From Promethearchaeota archaeon (GTDB lineage Archaea; Asgardarchaeota; Lokiarchaeia; Sigyniarchaeales; SOKP01), in assembly GCA_030599585.1 (NCBI GenBank), contig JAUVNS010000001.1, positions 320,001 through 384,000 on the forward strand: a DNA stretch of 64,000 nt, in the 5' to 3' direction. Every line of letters starts with the position of its first letter. Position 1 is the stretch's first letter. Below are positions 3,757 through 19,522 of this stretch, in pieces. Both the position numbers and the translations under genes were made by a program. The notes below the pieces were generated by a model. It was not told where the DNA came from. It saw nothing but the letters and a program-made list of their open reading frames with translations, and made no database searches.

Positions 3757-5553
3757 TTATTTCTTCCTTCCTCGAACTAAACTTAGAATTATAACTGCTG
3801 CAAGAGCTCCTAAACCTATGGCTAATCCGAAGATCAATCCAAGGATAAAGGGATCTAGTCCCGGGCTGGGCGTTATAGGCGCAGTACAGATATTATTCTC
3901 GAAAAGATTATTAACGCTGCCTGTTTCGTTGTAACAATCTAAATTATTAAGAAAAGTATTGCCAAGTATTTTGTTATTATTACTTGTATCTAAATAAGTC
4001 CCATTATTATTGTTATTGGCAGTATTCGAAAATATTACATTATCATCGCTTAAATCAAGATGGATTCCATTCATTTCGTTGTTATTGGCAGTATTCAATG
4101 TAATAAAATTTGTATCACTATTTTCTAAGAAAATACCATGCTCCATATTATCTGAAGCGGTGTTTTGATATATAATATTGTCATTACTATTACTCTCAAG
4201 CATAATACCACTCAAATTGTTAAGCGACGCCATATTTCCAGATAGAAAATTCCGTTCAGAACCTTGATAAATTAATATTCCGTTTTCCCCATTATATTGT
4301 GCGTCATTGCCATCAATTAAACTATCATCAGTGTCAAATAATCTTATTCCATTTAGACTATTTTCATAAGCTTTATTATTACTACAAGTTAAATTTACAC
4401 CGTTATTCATCCTAATTCCGTGTCGTGTATTGTTTAAAGCAATATTATCCAAGATTACGGAATCATCGCAATTGAAAAGCCAAATTCCTTCTTCTCCGTT
4501 ATGATTAGCAGTATTTTCCTTGAGTGTATTGTTGTGACTATCAGTTCGTAGCTCAATTCCACTAAGAGCATTATTATTTGCGGTATTTTCGGATAATGTG
4601 TTATAAATGCTAGAGTCAAAAATGTATATACCACGATTATTGTTATTAGCATGATTTAATGATAGTGTGAATCTACCACTTTGTTCCAACAAAATTCCAT
4701 CATCAGTATTGTCGTTAATATCATTATTTAAAATGCTACCATCCCAACTTTCAAATACATAAATACCGTTAGCACTATTAGGTCCAATCGTATTTCCTTC
4801 GATTATAGTATTATTTGAATTCTCGTTATAAATTCCGTTAGAATTGTTAAAGATAATATTATCGGTTAATGTAATATCGATACAATCATCAAGAAATATA
4901 CCTGCAGCAGCACTTTCAGATATTGTATTATCTGTAAAAGTAACGTCTTCACAATTATCTAATTGGACACCGTAATTTACAGAGGAGCCATCAACGAGAT
5001 TTAAATTAAAATCTAAATCATGCGAGTTTACTATAATTAAACCTGATCCACATAATGACACATTATTGTTTACGAAAGATATCTGACTACAATTATCAAC
5101 ATAAATGCCCCCCCAAATGAAGACTATTTGATTGTCTTCAACTAATCCATTCGTTGTATTTACCAAACGAATTCCTGCTACTAATCCAGAAGTTATGAAC
5201 TCACAATTAATAACTCTGAAGTGTTTTCTCGAGTTAGCAATCGTTAAAGGCCAACCACTTGTGAGATTGAACAAATCACCACTTATGATATATGGATCCC
5301 CAGAAGTCCCAGAGCCAGTACAAATACCTTCAGCTGAAGCGTTTGCCCAGTCTTTCGTAGGGTCGGTATCGTCAATCTCTATCGTGCTATTATAAGTTGC
5401 TGAGGTATTTAACCCATCAAGAAAAGTTACTTGGTTTGATGCTGTTGAAATTGGCAAATTAGTAAAAAAAAGCCCAATATTCATCGCTAATATTGTTATT
5501 AAAACAGATAAGAATACAATAGTTCTTGTGTTTTTTGATTTCATTTCTTTCAC
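3757..5553 (-). CDS. Membrane-anchored right-handed beta-helix (NosD/CASH-like) surface protein
   Basis: Signal peptide, GSGTSGDPYII, many N..GI.L..S.NN.I..N.A..N repeats, C-terminal PG plus TM helix plus RGRKK. Confidence 0.85.
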   Translation of the reverse strand: MKEMKSKNTRTIVFLSVLITILAMNIGLFFTNLPISTASNQVTFLDGLNTSATYNSTIEIDDTDPTKDWANASAEGICTGSGTSGDPYIISGDLFNLTSGWPLTIANSRKHFRVINCEFITSGLVAGIRLVNTTNGLVEDNQIVFIWGGIYVDNCSQISFVNNNVSLCGSGLIIVNSHDLDFNLNLVDGSSVNYGVQLDNCEDVTFTDNTISESAAAGIFLDDCIDITLTDNIIFNNSNGIYNENSNNTIIEGNTIGPNSANGIYVFESWDGSILNNDINDNTDDGILLEQSGRFTLSLNHANNNNRGIYIFDSSIYNTLSENTANNNALSGIELRTDSHNNTLKENTANHNGEEGIWLFNCDDSVILDNIALNNTRHGIRMNNGVNLTCSNNKAYENSLNGIRLFDTDDSLIDGNDAQYNGENGILIYQGSERNFLSGNMASLNNLSGIMLESNSNDNIIYQNTASDNMEHGIFLENSDTNFITLNTANNNEMNGIHLDLSDDNVIFSNTANNNNNGTYLDTSNNNKILGNTFLNNLDCYNETGSVNNLFENNICTAPITPSPGLDPFILGLIFGLAIGLGALAAVIILSLVRGRKK

Positions 5554-5855
5554 TCTCTAATTTCTTGTTATATTTGGTGTTAATATGGTAATATGATGAT
5601 TTCAGTATTTAAATCTATGTAACTTTAACGAAATGTGTTTTTACTATATTTTTGATTAAAAACAATGAATCAATCAGAAAGTCGACAAAAAAAAAATTAA
5701 GCATCAATCCACATTGTTAAGTATTAATTTTGATAAAGATGATGTATATCCAGTATATAGTTAATATTATATTTTAGGAAGATATCTTTCAGATCATAAA
5801 TTAAAATTAATAGAATTTTCATTACTTATTTCATTATAGATGGAGTTTATTTCTA

Positions 5856-7223
5856 ATGTCTGAACCCGTGACTAATTCAAAAATCATGATTAAACTAGAT
5901 AAGTATTTCCATAAAATTTTTAGTCCAAGTCATTTTGCCTACACTATATTTTTTTTTATTGAAGTCCTTATCTTAATTGTATTTTATTTTTTAGGTAGCA
6001 CTACTTTCGGCAATATTGGGTTATTTTTAGCTACTGTTTTCTCACTTTCATTCATTTTTTTAATGTTTATAGGAGTTTCTTCCAAACTGGAGTCGTATCT
6101 TTTTTCGAAAAGCTTAGATCAACATAAAACAGTGATTTTTGTAGCGACTTTAGGTGCTAGTTTCGTCATTGTTTTATTATATTTCCTATTTGGTGGCTCC
6201 AATCAAATCCCAATACAATTTATAGGATGGGATTACATTCTTCCAGGTTTTTATATTCTAGTTTATTTTGGATGGAACCTAGCTCAAATCTTTTTTTTAA
6301 AAACGAGCTTTGAAGATATTGCGTTTAAAGCAAATGACAAAATATTGACAGATTCAAATTCTAATAGGAACAAATATTTCAGCATCATTTTTTTAATTTT
6401 GGCAATTTCTATTTCTATTTTGACTCAAGTAGGGACATTCTTCGCATTCCTTCCATTTTTTGAACCTCAAACTCCTACAGATTCTTCACTAATATGGTTT
6501 AACGGTTGGAATATTGCCATGTATATTGTTATATTTTTTATCTCCTATCGATTAGTGTTTCTCAATATTAAAAGCATAAAAAATAATACTCCAAACATTT
6601 TCTCTTCAATTTTTTTTGTTCTGGTGTATTTAATTATCTGGTATCGTTCCTTTAGTTTCATAAATTCCTTTAGGAGCGTTTCCTCTGCTTTAGTAGCAGG
6701 TATCGATGCATTTCGGGCATTAATTGATATTGGATTAATGATAATTACGGCTATTCTCGTTATTAAAGGTTTAGGAAGTAAGACTTTTAAATTTCGTATT
6801 TTTAATCCTAACAATTTAGCGTTTTTCCTTTTTGCCTTTACTTTAATTTATATAGAAGGCCAGATTGTCATGATCACGGGAGCTGGCTCTATTTCTGGCA
6901 CCTACACTAATCGAAGTCAAGTTAATTTAGTAAATAATTTTGCGGTATTACTGATAACGATAATTTTTTATTGGTTCTATTCTGAATACACTTTAAAGAA
7001 GAATGGATTGATTTTAAAACAAAATTTTAACCAAAAAGAGGTAATCGAGATAGTAACTGATTTCAAGTCTCATCTAATTAACAGTGGTGCTTTAGACTCA
7101 GAAAAAATAAATGATTGGGAATTCCAAAATTTTCTCAAAAACAAAAAGTTAATTGATGAAGAAGAAAGGGTATCTGAAAGCAATAGACTTGAAGAACCAA
7201 CTAACAATCAGACTGAAATTTAG
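5856..7223 (+). CDS. Multi-pass membrane protein of unknown function
   Basis: 455 aa with about 10 hydrophobic segments and a soluble C-terminal tail. Confidence 0.75.
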   Translation: MSEPVTNSKIMIKLDKYFHKIFSPSHFAYTIFFFIEVLILIVFYFLGSTTFGNIGLFLATVFSLSFIFLMFIGVSSKLESYLFSKSLDQHKTVIFVATLGASFVIVLLYFLFGGSNQIPIQFIGWDYILPGFYILVYFGWNLAQIFFLKTSFEDIAFKANDKILTDSNSNRNKYFSIIFLILAISISILTQVGTFFAFLPFFEPQTPTDSSLIWFNGWNIAMYIVIFFISYRLVFLNIKSIKNNTPNIFSSIFFVLVYLIIWYRSFSFINSFRSVSSALVAGIDAFRALIDIGLMIITAILVIKGLGSKTFKFRIFNPNNLAFFLFAFTLIYIEGQIVMITGAGSISGTYTNRSQVNLVNNFAVLLITIIFYWFYSEYTLKKNGLILKQNFNQKEVIEIVTDFKSHLINSGALDSEKINDWEFQNFLKNKKLIDEEERVSESNRLEEPTNNQTEI

Positions 7224-8474: not shown

Positions 8475-9113
8475 TTATAGCTTTAGTTCTTCAATTCCGA
8501 GAATAATAATATATTTTAATTCGGTTAAAGATTTTTTAACATTCATGTACGGCTCAAAGGAAACAAGAAGATTCTCATTCTCATCGCGTCCTACGATCAA
8601 ACAATCGTAGAATACCGGATCAATTCTCTCATCAATTACTACTCTATCAGCTAAGATGACTCCATTCCCTACTAATGATACAGGGTTTCTGAGCATTTCC
8701 TCCCTAAAAAATTCCAGATGATTAATTCCATATTCATAGTCGTCTAAATACAGGGCAGCAGTGTTTAACTTGTTTAAAGTGTAAGGATAGGCGTCAGAGA
8801 ACTGGCCTTCATCGTAAACTTGCATGAGATCTTCTGATATTAGAATTGAATATTCAATCGACTCAAAATCCTCGTACCACTGTACCTCTATCTTTCGAGA
8901 AAATGCTAATTTTTTACCGTAAATTAATTCGAACCCAACTCTTAGGCCATTATTAATGAAAATGCCTTCTGAATCAGATATTTTTAGGTTGTCTGAGAAA
9001 ATAATGGAATCGTTCTCATCCTTGCATCGAGTAATTATTGATCCTTGGAACTCTCCTTCCAAATTTATGCCTTTTACAGAATCGTATAGGATAATGTTTT
9101 CGGTATTACTCAT
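8475..9113 (-). CDS. Hypothetical acidic protein, probably co-transcribed with the ATPase
   Basis: 212-aa ORF ending 12 bp before the ATPase start. Confidence 0.7.
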   Translation of the reverse strand: MSNTENIILYDSVKGINLEGEFQGSIITRCKDENDSIIFSDNLKISDSEGIFINNGLRVGFELIYGKKLAFSRKIEVQWYEDFESIEYSILISEDLMQVYDEGQFSDAYPYTLNKLNTAALYLDDYEYGINHLEFFREEMLRNPVSLVGNGVILADRVVIDERIDPVFYDCLIVGRDENENLLVSFEPYMNVKKSLTELKYIIILGIEELKL

Positions 9114-9199
9114 AATTAGTGTTGAATCAAGTTAGCTTTTCCTTAATACGAAAGATAGGATTGTATATATAAGTATAAGTATAATACTATATAATTAGT

Positions 9200-10444
9200 A
9201 TGGGTTCAATTAGTCTATCCAATAAAATATGTGAACTGTCTAAGGAAGATTTGCTTCAGAGGGCAAACGAATTCATTTTTTCTTCGGGATTGAATGACGG
9301 TGCTTCGAAACTGTGTAAAGCCAACATGAAATATGGTTTAGCACAATTCCATCTTATTCAAGAAAAATATGGTTTTAAACCTAAAGCAACCTTTATTTCA
9401 TCCCCTGATGAAACAATTTCAAGAAATAATTTCCGTTGGAATTCTGGATTGGGATATGGTGGAAGATTAAATTGGGGAGAAGGGGACGATAAATTAATAT
9501 TTTTAAATATTAAGCCTAATTGTTGCGGATTATTAGTCGGAGGATTAGAAGAGTTACCTGATCCTTACGATATCATAAAAAAAATAGACACTGTAAAGAG
9601 TACCGAATTATATTACGATGATGCTTTAATTAATTGGGATTATGGTGTTTCTAATCACTTCATTAATTGTTTTGAAACAAAAAATCTATCTGATACCAAC
9701 TTTCCTCCTTATATGTTCATGATACATGGCTCTGCTCCTGAATTTCGCGACGACAGGCATGGAATTGGTTTGTACATTGACACTTCGAAGTCATTAAAAG
9801 AACGAGCTATTGAGGAACAAACGGTATTTGGGAAACAATATATATTATTAGACTCTGATGCGGAAGAATATCTTGAATTTAATAAAAAGGCACTTAATTT
9901 TTCGAATAAGAAGAGAGAAATGATAGCTCGCAAGATTTTTAATCCAGATTACAAAGTAGTATGTAACACACCACACCAATTCTTAAAAGACTTCAATAAT
10001 ATGTATTTAGGAAGTAATTGTACTGACATAAAAAGCAACAGCCTTCACACTAACATTTTCCCTACGGCATTACGCGCCGATTTAGCGTGTTATCTTTGGA
10101 GAGGTAAAAAAAGTTATTCGAGAACTACACTAAGAAACAATGATTTCTTCACAAGAGCTGAAGATTTAGAGCTTCTTGACTTACTGAGCAACGCTGATAT
10201 ACTACCACACGGTGGGGGTTACATGTTACCTGATATAAGAAGAGTACAAAAAGTTTTGGAATACAAGTATCAAAGATATTTTGTGTGCGAACTAGAAAAA
10301 GATACAGAAAAATTAAAAATCGTGAAAAATGTTAAAGAGTTACAATTCATATATAGAGGACGGGATGTTATACTCAAGTCCATTCAGTTTGAACTCGGTG
10401 AAATCATTGCCCGATTAAACCCTATCTTTTCTCTTAAACTATAA
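9200..10444 (+). CDS. Divergent RtcB-family RNA ligase-like protein
   Basis: RtcB-type motifs in the expected order: SPD..GLGYGG, PNCCG, GVSNHF, MIHGS, TPHQ, LPHGGG. Confidence 0.7.
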   Translation: MGSISLSNKICELSKEDLLQRANEFIFSSGLNDGASKLCKANMKYGLAQFHLIQEKYGFKPKATFISSPDETISRNNFRWNSGLGYGGRLNWGEGDDKLIFLNIKPNCCGLLVGGLEELPDPYDIIKKIDTVKSTELYYDDALINWDYGVSNHFINCFETKNLSDTNFPPYMFMIHGSAPEFRDDRHGIGLYIDTSKSLKERAIEEQTVFGKQYILLDSDAEEYLEFNKKALNFSNKKREMIARKIFNPDYKVVCNTPHQFLKDFNNMYLGSNCTDIKSNSLHTNIFPTALRADLACYLWRGKKSYSRTTLRNNDFFTRAEDLELLDLLSNADILPHGGGYMLPDIRRVQKVLEYKYQRYFVCELEKDTEKLKIVKNVKELQFIYRGRDVILKSIQFELGEIIARLNPIFSLKL

Positions 10445-12623: not shown

Positions 12624-13793
12624 TTATAGAATTTGCGCTCCACAAGCTCTACACGCTTTAATTTCAGAATGCATTTTCTTTAAACATGGTTCGTGATAAT
12701 AAGCTGCGCATTTTTGGCATTGATATACCTTGTAATCACCTAAAAAAATACTGTGGCAATAAGTACAAGACGAATTGATATCTTCAACATCATATTCTGG
12801 AATTAAAGCCATTTGTGTAGTATTTATACCACTTTCATCAATTAATTTGATTTTTGGTTCTTGTTCAGTTTTCTCTTCTATTAACTTTGCTGCTGCTGGC
12901 GGCAGTTCCAACAAAAAGAAGCAAAACGGACATCTGAACACGTGCTCTTTATATTCAGTTTTCTTTGCCCACATAGCTGCACACGAAAGGTGCATTGGGC
13001 GTTCACAAGAAGGACAGTATCGACCTTCGCTAAAAAAATCAGAACCCGTTATTGGTGCTTTTACAGAGTGGCAGATTTGACATTTTTCTTGACCTCTCTC
13101 TCTACTACCCATCATTAGCCTTATATCCAAAACGCTAGGTCTTCTCAATTGTAGCGCTATATCACTTATTAAAGGCGCCAAGTCGCTTTTTTTATCTTGC
13201 GAATAATAATCTGTTGAGAGTTTAAGTTCTTTTTTTGATGCAAATGACATTCCAGCATTCAATAACGCTTTTGAATTGTTAAAGAATCCAAATTGCCCTC
13301 CCGTAAGTCTTACAATTTTCTTTAGGATGCTTTGAGAGTAATCTTGGGTTTTCCCTAATTGGCAAGCGTCGATATATATTCCTAGACCTTTAGCAATATC
13401 AATTGTTTTTTGAATTTTTTCTTTGTATTCTACTTTATTGTCTGATATAATAAAAATTCTACTGGTTTTACCTCCTAATTTGCGCATTTCACCAACTAGA
13501 AATTGGATTGCGAAAGCTAATCCTTCGTCTAACAAACCATTACCAGAAACTTTGATTTTTCCTAACGATTTAACCAATTGTTCTTCATCGTAACTAAATG
13601 AACTAAGTTTCTTGATCGTAGCACCAAAAGAAAGAATTGCTATTCTATCTTTAGGATCGATTATAAATTTCTCGTGAATAAAGTTTTTTGCTGTTTCCAG
13701 TGAAACTAATATACGATTAGGTTTAAAATCCTTCCTAACCATAGATCTCGAAGAATCTATAAGAATTACACAATCTTCTATTAAATCTTGCAT
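12624..13793 (-). CDS. vWA domain plus two C4HC3 RING-like zinc fingers; Ssl1/p44 (TFIIH)-like
   Basis: IDSSRSM (MIDAS)..KDFKPNR; fingers CQIC..CPSC.RPMHLSC..CPFC and CTYC..CQKC..YHEPC..CRAC. Confidence 0.75.
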   Translation of the reverse strand: MQDLIEDCVILIDSSRSMVRKDFKPNRILVSLETAKNFIHEKFIIDPKDRIAILSFGATIKKLSSFSYDEEQLVKSLGKIKVSGNGLLDEGLAFAIQFLVGEMRKLGGKTSRIFIISDNKVEYKEKIQKTIDIAKGLGIYIDACQLGKTQDYSQSILKKIVRLTGGQFGFFNNSKALLNAGMSFASKKELKLSTDYYSQDKKSDLAPLISDIALQLRRPSVLDIRLMMGSRERGQEKCQICHSVKAPITGSDFFSEGRYCPSCERPMHLSCAAMWAKKTEYKEHVFRCPFCFFLLELPPAAAKLIEEKTEQEPKIKLIDESGINTTQMALIPEYDVEDINSSCTYCHSIFLGDYKVYQCQKCAAYYHEPCLKKMHSEIKACRACGAQIL

Positions 13794-13810: not shown

Positions 13811-15169
13811 TCATTTTTTACTTAGAAATTTGTAGGCGAAAATCGCATAAACCTTTATTGCTCTAATAAAATCTAGAATTTCAATATTTTCATCGATTGC
13901 GTGAGCGGTTCTTGCTTTACCAGGTCCGAATAAGATAGTTTGCGGACAGTATCCGTCGTTACGCAAATAATGCGCATCAGCAGAAGCAGGTAAAAGAAGA
14001 TAGAATGGTTTCTTCTCGTAGATAGTTTCAACAAGCTCAAAAAAATCATTCAATTCGTTTGATTCTTCCCAATTTTCCCAATAAGAGCCTTCAGAAGCCG
14101 TTACTATTTCAACCTCAACAAAAATTTCCCCAGGAGGATTATTTGTATCATCCTTGACTAAATATCCTACTACATCCCTAATTAGTTTTTTTAAAGCCTC
14201 TATGATGGGATCAACTTGTTGTCCCGGTAAGAGTCTTACATCTAATAAAGCCTCGCAAGTATCGGGAATTACATTCACTTTAATTCCACCCTTTATCATG
14301 GTAAGCGCTTTTGAATAACTAACAAGCGATTGGAATAAGCTTTCTATTTCAGGTTGTTCGTTTAAGATTCTGTTGAAAATATCTTCACTCGGGAAAGTAG
14401 ATGCTAATAAATTCTTGAGTTTTTTCAATTTAATCGGTGGATCGCTTTTAAGGATATATTCATCGATTTTATCTAGGCTCTCAATTATTTCGGTCATCAT
14501 ATAAATTGCGTTTTTACTCATTGCTGGCATTGAAGAATGACCTGAAATCCCATGTGTCGTTATTTTTATGATGAGATGCCCCTTTTCCCCTACAAGAATT
14601 GCTTTTGGAAGCGGATTTAGACCTGTTGATTCACCTATCACAGCAAAATCACACTTTATAGACTTTAAGGGATTATCAACGCACCAACCTGTTCCAAACT
14701 TTCCTCCAGTTTCTTCATCTGCAACAGCATTTAAAATTAAATTTCCAGGAAGATCGAATTTTAACTCTTTTAAAACTTTTAGAGCAATAACCATAGCTGC
14801 TAATCCGCTCTTCATATCAGAACTTCCTCTACCATATATAATTTTCTTACGTTTAACTAACGCTGAAAAGGGAGGATATTTCCAATCTGTTTCGGATCCT
14901 GGAGGAACAACATCCATGTGTCCGTTATATAACAGATTTTTTCCTTTAAAATTTTTGTTCAAATATGCTATTAAATTTGCTCGATTATTTCCAAAGGGAA
15001 AAATTTCAGTCTTAATCCCTATATCTTTCAAAAATTCTTCGATTATTAAAGCTACATTCTTTTCATTCCCAGGTGGGTTAACAGAATCGCTTTGAATAAG
15101 CGTTCTTAAAAATTCAACGTAAATTTCTTTGTTTTGCTCAATTTTGGTGATAATAGATTCTACACTCAT
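13811..15169 (-). CDS. M20-family metallopeptidase/deacylase (ArgE/DapE-like)
   Basis: NGHMDVVP, YGRGSSDMKSG, DEETGG, GHSSMP and AHAIDE motifs. Confidence 0.9.
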   Translation of the reverse strand: MSVESIITKIEQNKEIYVEFLRTLIQSDSVNPPGNEKNVALIIEEFLKDIGIKTEIFPFGNNRANLIAYLNKNFKGKNLLYNGHMDVVPPGSETDWKYPPFSALVKRKKIIYGRGSSDMKSGLAAMVIALKVLKELKFDLPGNLILNAVADEETGGKFGTGWCVDNPLKSIKCDFAVIGESTGLNPLPKAILVGEKGHLIIKITTHGISGHSSMPAMSKNAIYMMTEIIESLDKIDEYILKSDPPIKLKKLKNLLASTFPSEDIFNRILNEQPEIESLFQSLVSYSKALTMIKGGIKVNVIPDTCEALLDVRLLPGQQVDPIIEALKKLIRDVVGYLVKDDTNNPPGEIFVEVEIVTASEGSYWENWEESNELNDFFELVETIYEKKPFYLLLPASADAHYLRNDGYCPQTILFGPGKARTAHAIDENIEILDFIRAIKVYAIFAYKFLSKK

Positions 15170-15322: not shown

Positions 15323-18300
15323 TTGGTTAATTTGATTTTACGACGAACAAAGAAGGTTAAAAGAATTTTATTTGCGAGCATATTCATCTTTTCAATGATA
15401 TTAGTAAATACGCTGATGTTGAGTGACTTTAATGTAGATTTGAACAATAACCAACAATATGAGTGGTCAATTGACGAAAATGATGTTTTAACCTCCGATA
15501 TCGACCCATATCTGACAGATTATATCATATCAGGTACAGGAGATAATCAAGAAGTAAGAATTTACGCTTTAAATAATTCCTTTTCAAACGATAACAATCA
15601 AAATTCCTTTGATATTCCATCTCTGTCAACTACCGAATCAACTTATTTGACATATGGAAATTTTAATTTCACATTTCAGAACAATTTCACGACAGATTAT
15701 GTTATTGAAGATACAAACGCCTTTGAAGCGGATGACTTTATTGAATTCGTATATAACGAGGCTACCTCTTCTATGAAGATTAATACTGGTGAAAACCTTA
15801 CTTTAATTAATTTTGGTAATCTGGTGGACGGAGACCCATCTAATATAGAGTTGAATTCGTCTAAAGGTGTATTAAATTTCACAATAGCATCAAACTTCGC
15901 AGGTACGACTGATAATGTTGCTGGAGATGTTGTCAATTTCGATAGATCGACCATACTAGGGTTGATTTCGCAATTTTCAGGTAGTATTGATAAAGATGTA
16001 AATTTAACACTAAAAATGTATGATGTATCAAGCTCATCTTGGAAAAGCGTAGCTGATCCCTTCTTTATAAATTGGAGCTTAGGCACTCAATTATTTGAGA
16101 ACACATTTATCAATGAAAATCTCAATTATATTAATGCGTCAGATATAAACCAAATCCAATTTTACTTTGATCGGTCTGATACAACAGAGTTTATTTTTAC
16201 TTTAGAAGAATTCGAATTAGTTTCTACTTATAGTTTTGATATACCAATAACCAGTAGTAATCAAGTTGCTTTGGAGTTTGATTTAAAAGGGGAAAGTTCA
16301 AGCGTAAACGGATTCTATGCCTGGATAAGAACTCTGAACCTCACCCAAGCTTTAAATGCAGAATTAAACATAACTCTTTATGAAGCAAATGCAACTATTG
16401 CTAGAACACAATCAAATTTAAAAGCAGTAAATTTAGAACCTAACATTGCCAAACTAATTGATTCGAAGATTATTGATTATCACGGTGATTCTTTATCATA
16501 CTTCGATTTCAATCTTGCAAACACACAAAACTTAGAGCTCAACAACTATTTTATAGTTATTAAATCAAACCAGTCAGAACAAGTTTTTAGCTTGGTTACA
16601 ATACCCCAGCAAACCTATGGAGATACTGATTCGTGGGTAGATCATCAATTAAGAACAAGTAATAACAACGGAACAACATGGAATGTGGCTACGAACATAG
16701 TACCCTCCATACCAACACCCTACACTTCTGAAACACTGGACGCAGCGGCTTTTAAATTGAATGTCACGAGAGCATATATGCCTTCAGATTTTACGAATCC
16801 TTCCGACAGCCAAGATACATTGAAGATTCAAGACATTCCTATTCTTAACCAAATCAATAATAGTGCTCCTTACGATACAAGTTCGTCCTTAACATGGGGT
16901 TTAGGGCAATGGGATTATAATTTTACTACTCCAATTACAAACAATTCTTTAAATAATTTCCAGATAGACTTAACATGGAATAATAGCGTAATTCAAGATT
17001 TTAAATTTAATGCTACCTATTCGGTAAAGGCATTTTGGATAGAACAAGCTAATAACGCATATCAAGTGTCATATGATACAACTCCGATATGGGAGTTAAA
17101 CTATACTTTGAACACAGGTTATAAAAACTTCGATAACTGGAATTTACTTGAATTTTGGTATTTATTCCCGAGCGATTATACTGCAAAAAACTTAACAAAT
17201 CCAAATTCCACCGAGATTTACGAGGACGTTGTAAACAAGACGGGTGGAGAAAGAATACTAACCGATCGACCTTCATACGAATTCGTTTCAGTTTCAACCG
17301 ATATAATTAATGGTATAAGCGGAACTTACTCACTCAACCTTACTAGTAGCAACCTCATACATGAAATGAATAGTTACATTAACTACAATGACATTCTTTG
17401 GAAGACTAACGGTTTTATGTACGGAGATAACATATCAGTAAGACTTGATATAAGCGATCCTTATCTTAATCCTCCTATTAGTGGTAACGCTAATGTAGTT
17501 CTTTTTTATCCAAATAATTCAACAAAGGTACCCGGGGCTGAGCTGAATTCAGGATCAGGAATAATTAACGGGAATTCTCTAATTTATGATTTTAATAATC
17601 AATCAATTTACGATGTGACAAACGCTATACCTGTTCATGGTAATTATTACTTAGGATTCTTCTGGGAAAATGGCTCTGCAATAGGATGTCAAAAACTTAA
17701 GCTTTATATTGATAAGTACGATGTTGAGATGAATAATTTAATCTTCGAACCAACATTAAACCAGAATATTCTTGATGGAATTATCGATAAAGTGTATGAA
17801 GAATATTCAATATTAATTAGTACTGTAAATGTCACGGATGACAAATACTACCCATCGTTTTATGCTGTAAATAAAACAGACATCAATCAAGAATTTATCC
17901 ATACTATTGGCGATGAAGACATCCCAATTTTAATTGAAACTTTTCTTCAAAACGAGACAATTTTAAATCCTAATGAAAACATACGAATTACCACAAGAAT
18001 TCAAAACAAACACGATTTTGTTGATATTAAGCTAAGACTAAACGTACAACTCGTGTCTTTAGCTAATCAAGAATGGATAATCGCTGAACAGACGACAGAC
18101 CTCAAAACTTTAAAGCCAAGCATCGATCCTAATGGCGATGATACTCAAGATTTTTCTGTTGATATCACTATGCCAACTCTTCTTGGAGATGGAATTTGGC
18201 ATGGAGTAAATGCTCCAATAAGAAAAGGTGGAGCAAAAACACTAGTCACAGTTTTTATCGAATACGGTGGCGAAAGTTACGAGATCGATACTTATGAAAG

Positions 18301-19522
18301 CAGTGAATACTCGTTGATTATCAACAGTACAGATGATGTGTTTGAAGGTTACATCATTGCTTTAAAATCCGACAATGATATTACAGGAGCTTCAATTTTG
18401 AAGCCTTTTGAAAGAGATGAATGCCAATATCTCCCCAATCAAACTACAATTATAATAAATATCTACGATCGAAATTATGTAAGTAGCTACAATCAATTTA
18501 TTGATTCCTTTTCTCTGAAAATTAATAGCGATTTTACAGAAATTCAAACACACCCTCAAACGCCGATTTACGGTCAATTATTTAATTTAAGTTCTGTACT
18601 CAAAACGGAGTTAGGAGTTGTAATTTCAAATAAGAATGTTACTTGTCAATTTTATGATAGCGGAATATGGGAAAACTTATCAACTCAAATTTCGGATATA
18701 GACGGCATTACAAATTTTGAAATTGATACATTAAGCCTACCAAGCGACGATCAATTTAAATTTCGCTTAACATGGCAAGGAGATCAATATACTTTAGAAA
18801 ATTCTCGTAACATTACTGTTTTAATGTATCGAGCGTTAAACGCTCTATCCTTAGAGCTTCGATCGAATGTAGATCAGATTTTTAGAAACGCTCAACCTAC
18901 CATCCAAATAACATTAAGTAATATAGGAGACTCGGAACTCAGAATACTCGTTCCTAATATTTCTATTGGGATAAATCCCTTATTAAACTATAGTTTAGTT
19001 GAGATTGATTATTTAGCGTTAGGACAATTTAAACCCGGAGATATTACAGTCATTTTGGTGAAAATTGATGTTCCAGCAATCGATCAAATGAATATATCTG
19101 TCTCAATTAGCGTAAAAAATGAAATTACTGATGAGGAACTTACTTTTCAAGTTTCGAAACTGTTTGAGATATATGATGTGCAACTTGTTGATTATTTCTT
19201 AAACCTATTTACCCTTATCATGATATCACTTTTTATTTTAGTCTGGGTAATCATGTACTTTTATGTGAAAAAGACTATAAAGAGAATCGAAACTCCTTAT
19301 GAGGAACCTGAAAAACGAAAACAGCGAAAAGGAAGATATGTATCAGTAAGTGAAATACCGAAAGAAAAAATTCCAGAAACAAAACCAATAGATTATACAG
19401 AAAAAAAATCTAAGAAACGAAAGAAGAAGAAAAAACAGAAAAAACCAGAAGCCGAGAAAAAGGATAAATCTCCTAGTACAGATTTAGATTCGTTATTAGA
19501 AGAAAAAGGTCTAAAAGATTAA
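15323..19522 (+). CDS. Large membrane-anchored cell-surface glycoprotein
   Basis: 1399 aa; signal peptide, beta-rich ectodomain with many N-x-S/T sequons, C-terminal TM and Lys-rich tail. Confidence 0.8.
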   Translation: MVNLILRRTKKVKRILFASIFIFSMILVNTLMLSDFNVDLNNNQQYEWSIDENDVLTSDIDPYLTDYIISGTGDNQEVRIYALNNSFSNDNNQNSFDIPSLSTTESTYLTYGNFNFTFQNNFTTDYVIEDTNAFEADDFIEFVYNEATSSMKINTGENLTLINFGNLVDGDPSNIELNSSKGVLNFTIASNFAGTTDNVAGDVVNFDRSTILGLISQFSGSIDKDVNLTLKMYDVSSSSWKSVADPFFINWSLGTQLFENTFINENLNYINASDINQIQFYFDRSDTTEFIFTLEEFELVSTYSFDIPITSSNQVALEFDLKGESSSVNGFYAWIRTLNLTQALNAELNITLYEANATIARTQSNLKAVNLEPNIAKLIDSKIIDYHGDSLSYFDFNLANTQNLELNNYFIVIKSNQSEQVFSLVTIPQQTYGDTDSWVDHQLRTSNNNGTTWNVATNIVPSIPTPYTSETLDAAAFKLNVTRAYMPSDFTNPSDSQDTLKIQDIPILNQINNSAPYDTSSSLTWGLGQWDYNFTTPITNNSLNNFQIDLTWNNSVIQDFKFNATYSVKAFWIEQANNAYQVSYDTTPIWELNYTLNTGYKNFDNWNLLEFWYLFPSDYTAKNLTNPNSTEIYEDVVNKTGGERILTDRPSYEFVSVSTDIINGISGTYSLNLTSSNLIHEMNSYINYNDILWKTNGFMYGDNISVRLDISDPYLNPPISGNANVVLFYPNNSTKVPGAELNSGSGIINGNSLIYDFNNQSIYDVTNAIPVHGNYYLGFFWENGSAIGCQKLKLYIDKYDVEMNNLIFEPTLNQNILDGIIDKVYEEYSILISTVNVTDDKYYPSFYAVNKTDINQEFIHTIGDEDIPILIETFLQNETILNPNENIRITTRIQNKHDFVDIKLRLNVQLVSLANQEWIIAEQTTDLKTLKPSIDPNGDDTQDFSVDITMPTLLGDGIWHGVNAPIRKGGAKTLVTVFIEYGGESYEIDTYESSEYSLIINSTDDVFEGYIIALKSDNDITGASILKPFERDECQYLPNQTTIIINIYDRNYVSSYNQFIDSFSLKINSDFTEIQTHPQTPIYGQLFNLSSVLKTELGVVISNKNVTCQFYDSGIWENLSTQISDIDGITNFEIDTLSLPSDDQFKFRLTWQGDQYTLENSRNITVLMYRALNALSLELRSNVDQIFRNAQPTIQITLSNIGDSELRILVPNISIGINPLLNYSLVEIDYLALGQFKPGDITVILVKIDVPAIDQMNISVSISVKNEITDEELTFQVSKLFEIYDVQLVDYFLNLFTLIMISLFILVWVIMYFYVKKTIKRIETPYEEPEKRKQRKGRYVSVSEIPKEKIPETKPIDYTEKKSKKRKKKKKQKKPEAEKKDKSPSTDLDSLLEEKGLKD

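Follow-up and report, generated by a model that had tools for sequence, protein, structure and literature searches.

The gene studied here lies on the minus strand of the window, by which we mean the whole 64,000-nucleotide stretch that was analysed, and its features are collected in Table 1. ORF listing and translation of the window showed a single, real open reading frame of 389 amino acids; its extent is exactly that proposed in the initial annotation. The product has an N-terminal vWA domain followed by two C4HC3 cross-brace zinc fingers. Both strings quoted in that annotation are present, the vWA string (IDSSRSMVRKDFKPNR...NFIHEKFIIDP) at residues 12-47 and the finger string (CTYC..YQCQKC..YHEPC..ACRAC) at residues 343-384, and the architecture that it claimed, a vWA domain with two RING-type fingers, holds by Pfam, AlphaFold models and ligand conservation. 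In the models, residues 5-186 adopt a vWA fold and both fingers form RING-like modules.

The two fingers share the pattern C-x2-C-x(12-18)-C-x2-C-x4-H-x2-C-x(10-16)-C-x2-C, with C238, C241, C260, C263, H268, C271, C288 and C291 as the first eight zinc ligands and C343, C346, C359, C362, H367, C370, C381 and C384 as the second. Conservation was counted in a 31-sequence family alignment (A2), in which identity reaches down to 27-33%. No variation occurs there at D13 or at 15 of the 16 zinc ligands, and the remaining ligand, C370, is Cys in 30/31; thus, the finger pattern is not due to chance. In the C-terminal structure model, the helical linker folds into two helices (199-212 and 221-229). The inter-finger linker has low pLDDT at model residues about 111-130 (protein residues 306-325), followed by a strand at 328-331 that packs onto finger 2.

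Table 1. Features of the vWA-RING-RING gene (nucleotide positions are those of the window)
Feature	Residues	Position	Strand	Remarks
vWA-RING-RING CDS, clade A of the family	389 aa + stop	12624..13793	(-)	
vWA domain	about 5-186	13236..13781	(-)	Pfam VWA_2, VWA, Ssl1; AF2 alternating beta/alpha fold
MIDAS-type motif	D13-S-S15-R-S17	13743..13757	(-)	DxSxS kept
Second MIDAS Asp	D118	13440-13442	(-)	D in 28/31
Conserved helical linker	187-234	13092..13235	(-)	FASKK...; APLISEIALxLRRP; invariant within close orthologues
Finger 1, C4HC3 cross-brace RING	238-294	12912..13082	(-)	E2-contact triad I240/W275/P289; ligands 8/8 at 31/31
Variable inter-finger linker	295-342	12768..12911	(-)	Poor conservation; ends in short beta strand
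Finger 2, C4HC3 RING, p44 (C1-like)- and Arkadia-type-like	343-389	12627..12767	(-)	Ligands invariant or nearly so

A search at E<=1e-3 produced 392 homologues, and the best 120 of these are mostly 350-425 amino acids long with near-full query coverage. Of the genomes sampled, 76 of 78 from the window's class contained the family, against 0 of 223 from other Asgard classes. Most genomes of the class hold two old paralogues, clade A, which includes the present gene, and clade B, in this genome at C24:137732-138892; the two separate with 100/99 support in the tree. The Pfam Ssl1 model is matched over its cut-off in 75 of 301 genomes of the phylum, all within the family's own class and, one short fragment excepted, in family frames of roughly 390-430 amino acids, and in 0 of 14 control genomes. 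Paralogue B scores 43.4 bits on this model, and the best match to the clade B vWA is a bacterial BatA-type protein (4rck, 64 bits). The gene is a conserved vWA plus double-RING protein of one Asgard class, the Lokiarchaeia. Locally it stands in the order ATPase, 212-aa gene, RtcB-like, MetRS, vWA-RING, M20, 1399-aa protein and Roadblock. This order, from ATPase to Roadblock, is lost in the sister family L010 (tblastn); because it is conserved only within the family-level taxon, the neighbourhood (MetRS, M20 peptidase) says nothing on function.

Within the vWA domain, the gene product matches Pfam VWA_2 (3.4e-13), VWA (6.4e-10) and Ssl1 (7e-9; 36.2 bits against a curated cut-off of 27 for PF04056). 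Besides D118, the residues of the metal-ion-dependent adhesion site (MIDAS) are well kept in the family alignment (D13, 31/31; S15, 25 Ser and 5 Thr; S17, 30/31), and G86, at the place of the usual MIDAS Thr, is variable. When a clade A vWA profile was compared with solved structures, Rpn10 scored 63 bits, p44 57 bits and bacterial BatA/BatB 22-24 bits; with the A2 vWA profile, Rpn10 was again the top match, at 72 bits. On the clade A profile, the top prokaryotic vWA-only proteins reach 65-88 bits, equalling or exceeding Rpn10 and p44, and the best 150 matches of a representative search consist of Asgard family members and prokaryotic vWA proteins alone. Fold comparison by VIA gave Ssl1 Z 24.0 (rmsd 2.3 over 182 residues), Rpn10 Z 23.8 and bacterial vWA Z 23.0, values that fail to separate p44, Rpn10 and bacterial vWA domains. 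The motif D.S..M...D..P.R, which had been put forward as an Ssl1 hallmark, turned out to occur in generic prokaryotic vWA proteins as well (e.g. P0203, P0225 and P0212), and D.S..M..D..PNR was rejected as diagnostic of Ssl1 on the same grounds. BatA/BatB-type proteins (PDB 4rck, 3ibs, 4jdu) and small vWA-only proteins share with the present protein a D.S.SM...D..P.R start and a TGG.Y end, but they are membrane-anchored or stand-alone, lack RING fingers and reach 17-26 bits on Ssl1, below the cut-off. A Sec23/24-like identity was also rejected: zf-Sec23_Sec24 matches only at E 0.85, and ArnB, the 'archaeal Sec23/24 core', lies below p44 and Rpn10 in VIA (Z 21.9).

Another reading is that the protein is a proteasome or ubiquitin receptor like Rpn10 (PSMD4/S5a), with its vWA docked on the archaeal proteasome-activating machinery and its fingers binding ubiquitin-like tags. 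Rpn10 is the single best vWA profile match among solved structures, its fold score is equal to that of p44, and the genome has JAB/Rpn11-like and Ub-like genes. However, Rpn10 carries C-terminal UIM helices, no zinc fingers and a degenerate MIDAS (DNSE.), whereas the present protein keeps DxSxS and has two zinc fingers in place of ubiquitin-interacting motifs, no UIM Pfam match being found at E<=10. The fingers are RINGs rather than known ubiquitin-binding zinc fingers, the ESM neighbours are p44 and not Rpn10, and we know of no 19S lid in these archaea. We therefore give a receptor of this kind very little credence.

Canonical RINGs hold the E2 via three hydrophobic positions, the I/W/P-type triad: one that follows ligand 1, a Trp in the central helix and a Pro behind ligand 7. 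Finger 1 has these hydrophobic E2-contact residues, conserved at 30/31 (I240), 31/31 (W275) and 29/31 (P289), and its Trp sits four residues past ligand 6, as in RINGs. Its top VIA fold matches are the C4HC3 RINGs of FANCL (Z 7.0, rmsd 1.6 over 62) and Listerin (Z 5.9). The set of contacts is only partial in finger 2, which has Y/F345, M374 and R/K382, with Arg/Lys in place of Pro. The best VIA matches of finger 2 are the p44 RING 5nus_B (Z 7.6, rmsd 2.6 over 63), human p44 (7.5), ZNRF1 (7.0) and RNF12 (6.8); p44 is nominally the best but is tied with Arkadia-type E3 RINGs, and Z scores of 6-7.6 are a range common for small domains. HRD1 is also among the VIA matches of the fingers, and RNF38 among their fold matches. 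In a finger-only profile search, the best matches of finger 2 were RING-H2 E3s, led by Arkadia (2.9e-6) and RNF165 (1.3e-5), with RLIM in the same range of about 1e-5 to 1e-6, and including RNF38; p44 of Chaetomium reached 0.016. Foldseek on the finger region alone retrieved RNF165 with probability 1.00 and TM 0.65, with no match at E<=1e-3. Across the 31 family members, Pfam assigned zf-RING_2 to 19 (best 6e-8), with zf-ANAPC11 reaching 1.8e-7. Compared with the Arkadia/RNF165/RNF38/RLIM, FANCL and Listerin RINGs, ligands 3-5 are here C-x2-C-x4-H and not C-x-H-x2-H, finger 2 has Arg/Lys at the E2-contact Pro site, and the linchpin Arg/Lys after the last Cys is absent from both fingers (F/Y292 and G385).

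The same finger data contain signals of another kind. In their spacing, C-x2-C..C-x2-C-x4-H-x2-C..C-x2-C, the fingers correspond to PHD and C1 domains. The C1_1 and PHD models of Pfam match 21/31 and 18/31 members, and the finger-only profile search also yields PKC-theta C1 (2e-4), Vav C1 and PHF1 PHD (4e-4). Together with the missing linchpin, these observations would suit a non-enzymatic adaptor or reader, in which PHD/C1/FYVE-like modules bind peptide tails, lipids or nucleic acid and the vWA docks, with no transfer of ubiquitin. We consider this rather unlikely, as E3 RINGs, rather than PHD or C1 domains, give the top sequence and fold matches, the I/W/P triad is kept, the Trp has the RING-like position, and the C1-type N-terminal His is missing. 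For a PHD finger as a histone-tail reader the signs are mixed: the spacing and the Pfam PHD matches fit, the residue two before ligand 7, where PHD domains have an aromatic, is F/L/T/I with no conserved Trp, and the best fold matches are RINGs.

The organism has a ubiquitin system of its own. A single operon on contig C28 carries genes for a Ub-like protein, a ThiF-type E1, a UQ_con E2 (C28:99420-99887) and a JAB deubiquitinase, and another E2 gene lies on contig C34 (C34:250463-250891); the vWA-RING gene does not adjoin the operon. Three features looked for in a RING E3 are present: eight-ligand binuclear cross-braces with a RING fold (by ligands, fold and profile matches), the hydrophobic E2-contact residues of finger 1, and cognate E1, E2 and ubiquitin genes in the same organism. 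With middling confidence, we predict the product to be a cytosolic, Lokiarchaeia-specific adaptor resembling a RING-type E3 ubiquitin ligase. Of the two options in the initial annotation, the second, which places a vWA-RING E3 in the Asgard ubiquitin system, has the better support, through the E2 triad, the E3 RING matches and the operon. Several observations count against an E3: the PHD/C1-like ligand spacing, which is not that of classical RING-HC or RING-H2 fingers; the lack of a linchpin in either finger and of a conserved MIDAS Thr; and the lack of Foldseek finger matches at E<=1e-3 and of linkage to the ubiquitin operon, with VIA Z scores that are common for small domains.

In such an E3-type adaptor, the vWA face, where DxSxS and the Asp are kept, may capture a partner or substrate, and finger 1 would recruit E2~Ub supplied by the ubiquitin machinery of the organism itself. 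Finger 2 has no Pro at the triad position and looks like the p44 RING, a partner-binding module; it could serve as a second protein-protein module, perhaps binding the vWA of the co-retained paralogue B in the way that the p44 RING sits on the p34 vWA. The contact that the p44 RING makes with the p34 vWA has been described as E2-like, E3 activity has been reported for Ssl1, and Arkadia-type, FANCL and Listerin E3s have been named as nearest to the p44 RING (PMC5737387). Plant RGLG1-5 and the WAV3/SOR1 family are eukaryotic vWA-RING E3 ligases in which the vWA binds substrate or partner and the RING recruits the E2 (PMC7155146, PMC5924906, PMC11047095). RGLG has the same order of vWA and C-terminal RING, and the same functional logic, as the present protein; however, RGLG combines a copine-type vWA with a single RING-HC, and WAV3 has an N-terminal RING-H2. 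Neither appears among the matches listed in our sequence and fold searches, which indicate no specific relationship.

The nearest known proteins are p44/Ssl1 and Rpn10, as the initial annotation had proposed, by Pfam Ssl1, Foldseek, VIA of finger 2, ESM features and vWA profiles. Full-length p44/Ssl1 chains are the top Foldseek hits, at 1.7e-16 versus about 1e-13 for the p44 vWA alone, and, among ESM-feature clusters, those of GTF2H2 lie closest after the family itself (0.91-0.88, ten hits). The outcome that the annotation named as fatal to a p44 likeness, a generic vWA grouping together with fingers unlike the Ssl1 RING, was not what we found for clade A, since the Ssl1 score over cut-off, Foldseek, VIA of finger 2 and ESM favour p44. 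The claimed parallel between the last finger and the Ssl1 RING stands as a fold match, tied with E3 RINGs, but not as a match to the C4C4 RING model C1_4 (PF07975), which was matched neither in the protein at E<=10 nor, in a genome-wide search, on the gene at E<=1. The interpretation in that annotation survives in part: the architecture and nearest known proteins were read correctly, and an Asgard ancestor of a TFIIH core subunit is unsupported by the comparisons made here. Of archaeal proteins, this one most resembles p44/Ssl1 and Rpn10, and it is not a demonstrated member of either family.

Comparison with p44 (GTF2H2/Ssl1; PF04056 plus PF07975) brings out both sides. Like p44, the protein has a cytosolic/nuclear-type vWA with no signal peptide, and its domains run collinearly from vWA through a zinc module to a C-terminal cross-brace RING. 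Finger 2 spaces its ligands 2-12-2-4-2-10-2, nearly the 2-11-2-4-2-10-2 that Kellenberger et al. reportedly gave for the p44 RING in 2005. Finger 2 is, however, C4HC3 where the p44 RING is C4C4, and DxSxS is intact in the present protein. In p44, a central single-zinc extended zinc finger (eZnF) interlocks with p34, and an N-terminal extension ahead of the vWA contacts XPB (PMC6422496). The middle module of the present protein is instead a binuclear RING of eight invariant ligands with a FANCL/Listerin-like fold; its GGRYCPNC and the GGYFCPQC of p44 form a weak collinear local match of only 3.5 bits. There is no N-terminal extension, vWA beta-1 starting at residue 6 here and likewise in orthologues. 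The genome, reported as 100% complete, has XPD-like DEAD_2 helicases (C9:338439 and C40:320804) but neither of the two other core subunits sought: Tfb2 (p52) had no match at E<=0.1, and a separate Tfb4 (p34) was not found, the sole match being a sub-cut-off one (22.1 bits) on paralogue B itself.

The protein may conceivably be ancestral to p44. A true archaeal relative of TFIIH p44 (and p34) would be a non-catalytic vWA-zinc scaffold, its vWA binding and regulating an XPD-type helicase and its RING binding the vWA of the paralogue. Several results are consistent with this: no other family in the 301 phylum and 14 control genomes exceeds the Pfam Ssl1 cut-off, p44 leads the Foldseek, finger 2 VIA and ESM lists, the domain order and the weak GGRYCPNC match are collinear, XPD-like helicases are present, and two co-retained paralogues could mirror p44 and p34. 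We judge it improbable all the same. C1_4 is unmatched, p44 falls far behind the E3 RINGs in the finger-only profile search (0.016 versus 3e-6), and the eZnF, the N-terminal extension, Tfb2 and any Tfb4 beyond the paralogue B match are missing. The family is confined to one class, unseen in the 223 genomes of other Asgard classes, among them the groups generally regarded as closest to eukaryotes. For the clade B vWA the BatA type is the closest, the best prokaryotic vWA proteins score at least as high as Rpn10 and p44 on the clade A profile, and the VIA Z values of the vWA give no separation. A bolder form of this idea, also a long shot, treats clades A and B as archaeal survivors related to the stock behind eukaryotic p44 and p34, and perhaps the Rpn10 vWA. 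The structural heart of the TFIIH core would then have begun as a pair of vWA-RING proteins of the ubiquitin-ligase type, the RING-to-vWA contacts later becoming fixed as a scaffold, and the p44 eZnF would be a finger 1 with a decayed site 2.

To our knowledge, TFIIH core subunits other than the XPB/XPD helicases have no accepted prokaryotic relatives. A strongly and class-wide conserved Asgard protein with a p44-RING-like last finger and a vWA that seems no farther from p44 and Rpn10 than from prokaryotic vWA domains is a concrete, clonable candidate that bears on two questions, namely substrate-docking E3s in Asgard ubiquitin systems and the archaeal root of the p44/p34 pair. No description of an Asgard vWA-RING or Ssl1-like protein was found in the literature searched; even if the p44 likeness reflects convergence, this would be the first vWA-RING-RING E3-type adaptor described in archaea. 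A weak lead within the genome is the membrane-anchored RING-like protein of the ubiquitin operon, to which hhalign aligned the fingers at E 8e-4 with a probability of 24%.

The 389-amino acid protein begins almost directly at its first vWA strand, lacks a signal peptide or hydrophobic segment, and has the vWA domain and two cysteine-rich fingers that the initial annotation described. Pfam places VWA_2 (3.4e-13), VWA (6.4e-10), and Ssl1 (PF04056; 7e-9, 36.2 bits against a curated cut-off of 27) on the vWA part, and both ligand sets were located (see table). In a 31-sequence family alignment, Asp13 never varies, nor do 15 of the 16 zinc ligands, and Cys370 is present in 30 sequences; Arg258, Trp275, Arg287, and Leu294 are likewise unvarying. 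The C-terminal half draws only weak Pfam matches, to C1_1, Prok-RING_1, and PHD. A non-enzymatic PHD/C1-like reader, which matches of this type would suggest, is an unlikely reading.

Positions of the features discussed; C24, C28, and C31 are other contigs of the same genome and L022, L024, and L025 are loci extracted from it
Feature	Location	Strand	Remark
vWA-RING-RING ORF, 389 aa	window 12624-13793	minus	ORF calling and translation
Finger 1 ligands	C238-x2-C241-x18-C260-x2-C263-x4-H268-x2-C271-x16-C288-x2-C291		translated ORF
Finger 2 ligands	C343-x2-C346-x12-C359-x2-C362-x4-H367-x2-C370-x10-C381-x2-C384		translated ORF
414-aa ORF	window 9200-10444	plus	no Pfam match at E<=1e-3
M20/M25/M40 peptidase	window 13811-15169	minus	ends 17 nt upstream of vWA-RING start
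1399-aa Asn/Ser/Thr-rich protein	window 15323-19522	plus	no Pfam match
Paralogue B and GTPase pair	C24:137732-138892 and C24:139090-140298	minus, plus	L025:7718-8917(-), 9091-10299(+)
Ubiquitin operon	C28, L022:5430-9616	minus	
Tandem pair of distantly related proteins (462 and 456 aa)	C31, L024:3964-5352 and 5482-6852	minus	

A word-indexed search returned 392 relatives, the best 120 of which are at least 62% identical and mostly 350-425 amino acids long; those with a name are all annotated as "VWA domain-containing protein", in MAGs of Promethearchaeota or Lokiarchaeota. An exhaustive HMMER search of 1.84 billion representative proteins gave 254 matches at E<=1e-3, of which the best 150 comprise full-length relatives down to ca. 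28% identity and, below these, generic prokaryotic vWA proteins, with no recognizable eukaryotic p44. Maximum-likelihood analysis divides the family into two clades (100/99 support), with the window gene in clade A; the clade B copy in the same genome (399 aa, 32% identical) has the same architecture. We then sampled 301 genomes of the phylum using the whole protein (E<=1e-20), the finger half (E<=1e-4), and Pfam Ssl1. Including the window's own genome, each protein query was positive in 77 genomes and the Ssl1 model in 76, most with two copies. Excluding it, the protein queries were positive in 68/68 genomes of the same family, 7/7 of the sister family, and 1/2 from the rest of the class, and all three queries were negative in the ca. 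223 sampled genomes of other classes. Ssl1 matches above cut-off fell within frames of this family, with none elsewhere in the sampled phylum or in 14 control genomes. The window protein is a vWA-RING-RING protein that, in this sampling, is specific to Lokiarchaeia.

Against all PDB sequences, the top ranks of the clade A profile are exclusively eukaryotic intracellular vWA proteins (Rpn10/S5a 63 bits, human p44 57, yeast Ssl1 37, BABAM1 32), with bacterial BatA-like 4rck at 24 and BatB at 22; for clade B the order is reversed (4rck 64, Rpn10 49, BatB 36, p44 33), and its vWA domain still looks BatA-like. An Rpn10-like receptor, for which the clade A ranking might be cited, is highly improbable. 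The nearest non-family prokaryotic vWA-only proteins, among them a Patescibacteria MAG protein, reach 65-88 bits on the clade A profile, at least equal to Rpn10, and give 17-26 bits, below cut-off, on the Ssl1 model. Comparison of the predicted fold does not discriminate among vWA types (Z: Ssl1 24.0, Rpn10 23.8, actinobacterial vWA 23.0, ArnB 21.9, p34 21.8, BatB 21.4). Thus, in distance from the clade A domain, Rpn10 and p44 are about level with the best prokaryotic vWA domains.

Residues 196-389, modelled separately by AlphaFold, gave a confident structure (mean pLDDT 84.8), for which Foldseek returned RNF165, RNF38, and FANCL, as well as p44, the last of these across both modules; the best E-value was 6e-3. 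The initial annotation had likened the last finger to the p44 RING. With VIA-align (48,161 chains), the Chaetomium p44 RING is nominally its best match (Z 7.6, rmsd 2.6 over 63 residues), with human p44 next (7.5); in this model-based comparison both tie with ZNRF1 (7.0), RNF12 (6.8), yeast Ssl1 (6.8), and HRD1 (6.6). The C1_4 model does not match the protein. A finger-only profile from 20 loci ranks Arkadia (2.9e-6), RNF165 (1.3e-5), RLIM (1.7e-5), and RNF38 (1e-4), with the Chaetomium p44 C-terminus reached only at E 0.016. According to Radu et al. (PMC5737387), the E3s RNF38 and Ark2C are themselves structurally closest to the p44 RING, whose contact with the p34 vWA is E2-like. Therefore, finger 2, the p44 RING, and Arkadia-type RINGs form one neighbourhood, within which the data give no order. 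For finger 1, VIA-align put the FANCL RING first (Z 7.0, rmsd 1.6 over 62 residues), then Listerin (5.9).

By several measures p44/Ssl1 is the closest known protein. When the whole-protein model was the query (mean pLDDT only 64), Foldseek put full-length p44/Ssl1 chains first (1.7e-16), ahead of the p44 vWA alone (ca. 1e-13), Rpn10 (1.6e-12), p34 (1.3e-11), and BatB (1e-10). ESM-Atlas features matched archaeal clusters of the protein's own kind, then ten eukaryotic GTF2H2/Ssl1 clusters (0.91-0.88) and Tfb4 (0.81), scores that the tool's own calibration treats as leads only. The genome encodes XPD-like helicases, which are present in most archaea. Nevertheless, the protein has a binuclear RING in the middle, unlike p44, whose eZnF holds a single zinc and interlocks with p34 (PMC6422496); the N-terminal extension is absent; Tfb2 was not found in the genome, and the Tfb4 model gave only a sub-threshold match, on paralogue B; and the family was found in a single class only. 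Four defining p44 features were tested and found lacking, so we do not file the protein as a p44 member. A p44-type scaffold is improbable.

The best-supported mechanism, to which we give about an even chance, is an E3-type adaptor, in which the vWA domain would dock a partner, finger 1 would recruit an E2, and finger 2 would serve as another interface, which may face the paralogue. Finger 1 keeps canonical E2-contact positions in both clades (Ile240 30/31, Trp275 31/31, Pro289 29/31); in finger 2, Arg/Lys stands where the E2-contact Pro would be, and neither finger has the linchpin Arg in the 31-sequence alignment. The E3 alternative of the initial annotation also gains from the ubiquitin operon of this genome, which encodes a ubiquitin-like protein (109 aa), a ThiF-type E1 (409 aa), a UQ_con E2 (174 aa), and a JAB/MPN deubiquitinase (273 aa), although the window gene is unlinked to it; a second E2 gene lies on contig C34. 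A further product of the operon, a multi-pass membrane protein of 372 amino acids, has a linker rich in Ser/Thr/Arg and, at its C-terminus, a RING-like module (C-x2-C..C-x2-C-x4-H..C-x2-C) missing one ligand (C4-H-x-C2); this protein may be a membrane-anchored E3. To our knowledge, the clade A versus B contrast, the restriction of above-cut-off Ssl1 matches to this family in the sampled phylum, the finger-only ranking, and the comparison with the best prokaryotic vWA proteins are new.

The paralogue B gene lies beside, and in divergent orientation to, that of a 402-amino acid Gtr1/RagA-Arf-like GTPase (Gtr1_RagA 3e-19, Arf 6e-19), a pairing kept in 7/7 same-family genomes tested, from six genera, and in a closed 4.4-Mb sister-family genome (identities 37% and 34%). 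This conservation suggests a functional link between that vWA-RING protein and the Rag-like GTPase. The window gene is flanked by MetRS and the M20 peptidase, an arrangement conserved among close relatives only; most genera of the family have the peptidase gene next to it, and one genus (L008, L015) does not. Given their shared strand and 17-nt gap, the peptidase and vWA-RING genes are probably co-transcribed here.

Each C31 tandem protein has a vWA-like domain that has lost DxSxS, a single Cys-rich finger with the FRCxxC..LLK motif of the family at its end, an acidic linker, and a zinc ribbon at the C-terminus. Proteins resembling them, such as P0189 and P0205, make up another branch, which is Asgard-only. 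In every same-family genome tested, the 414-amino acid ORF keeps its synteny with MetRS (55-78% identity). The 1399-amino acid protein has a signal-anchor-like segment at its N-terminus, a TM helix at the C-terminal end, and a tail rich in Lys; its identity across the family-level taxon is 33-61%.
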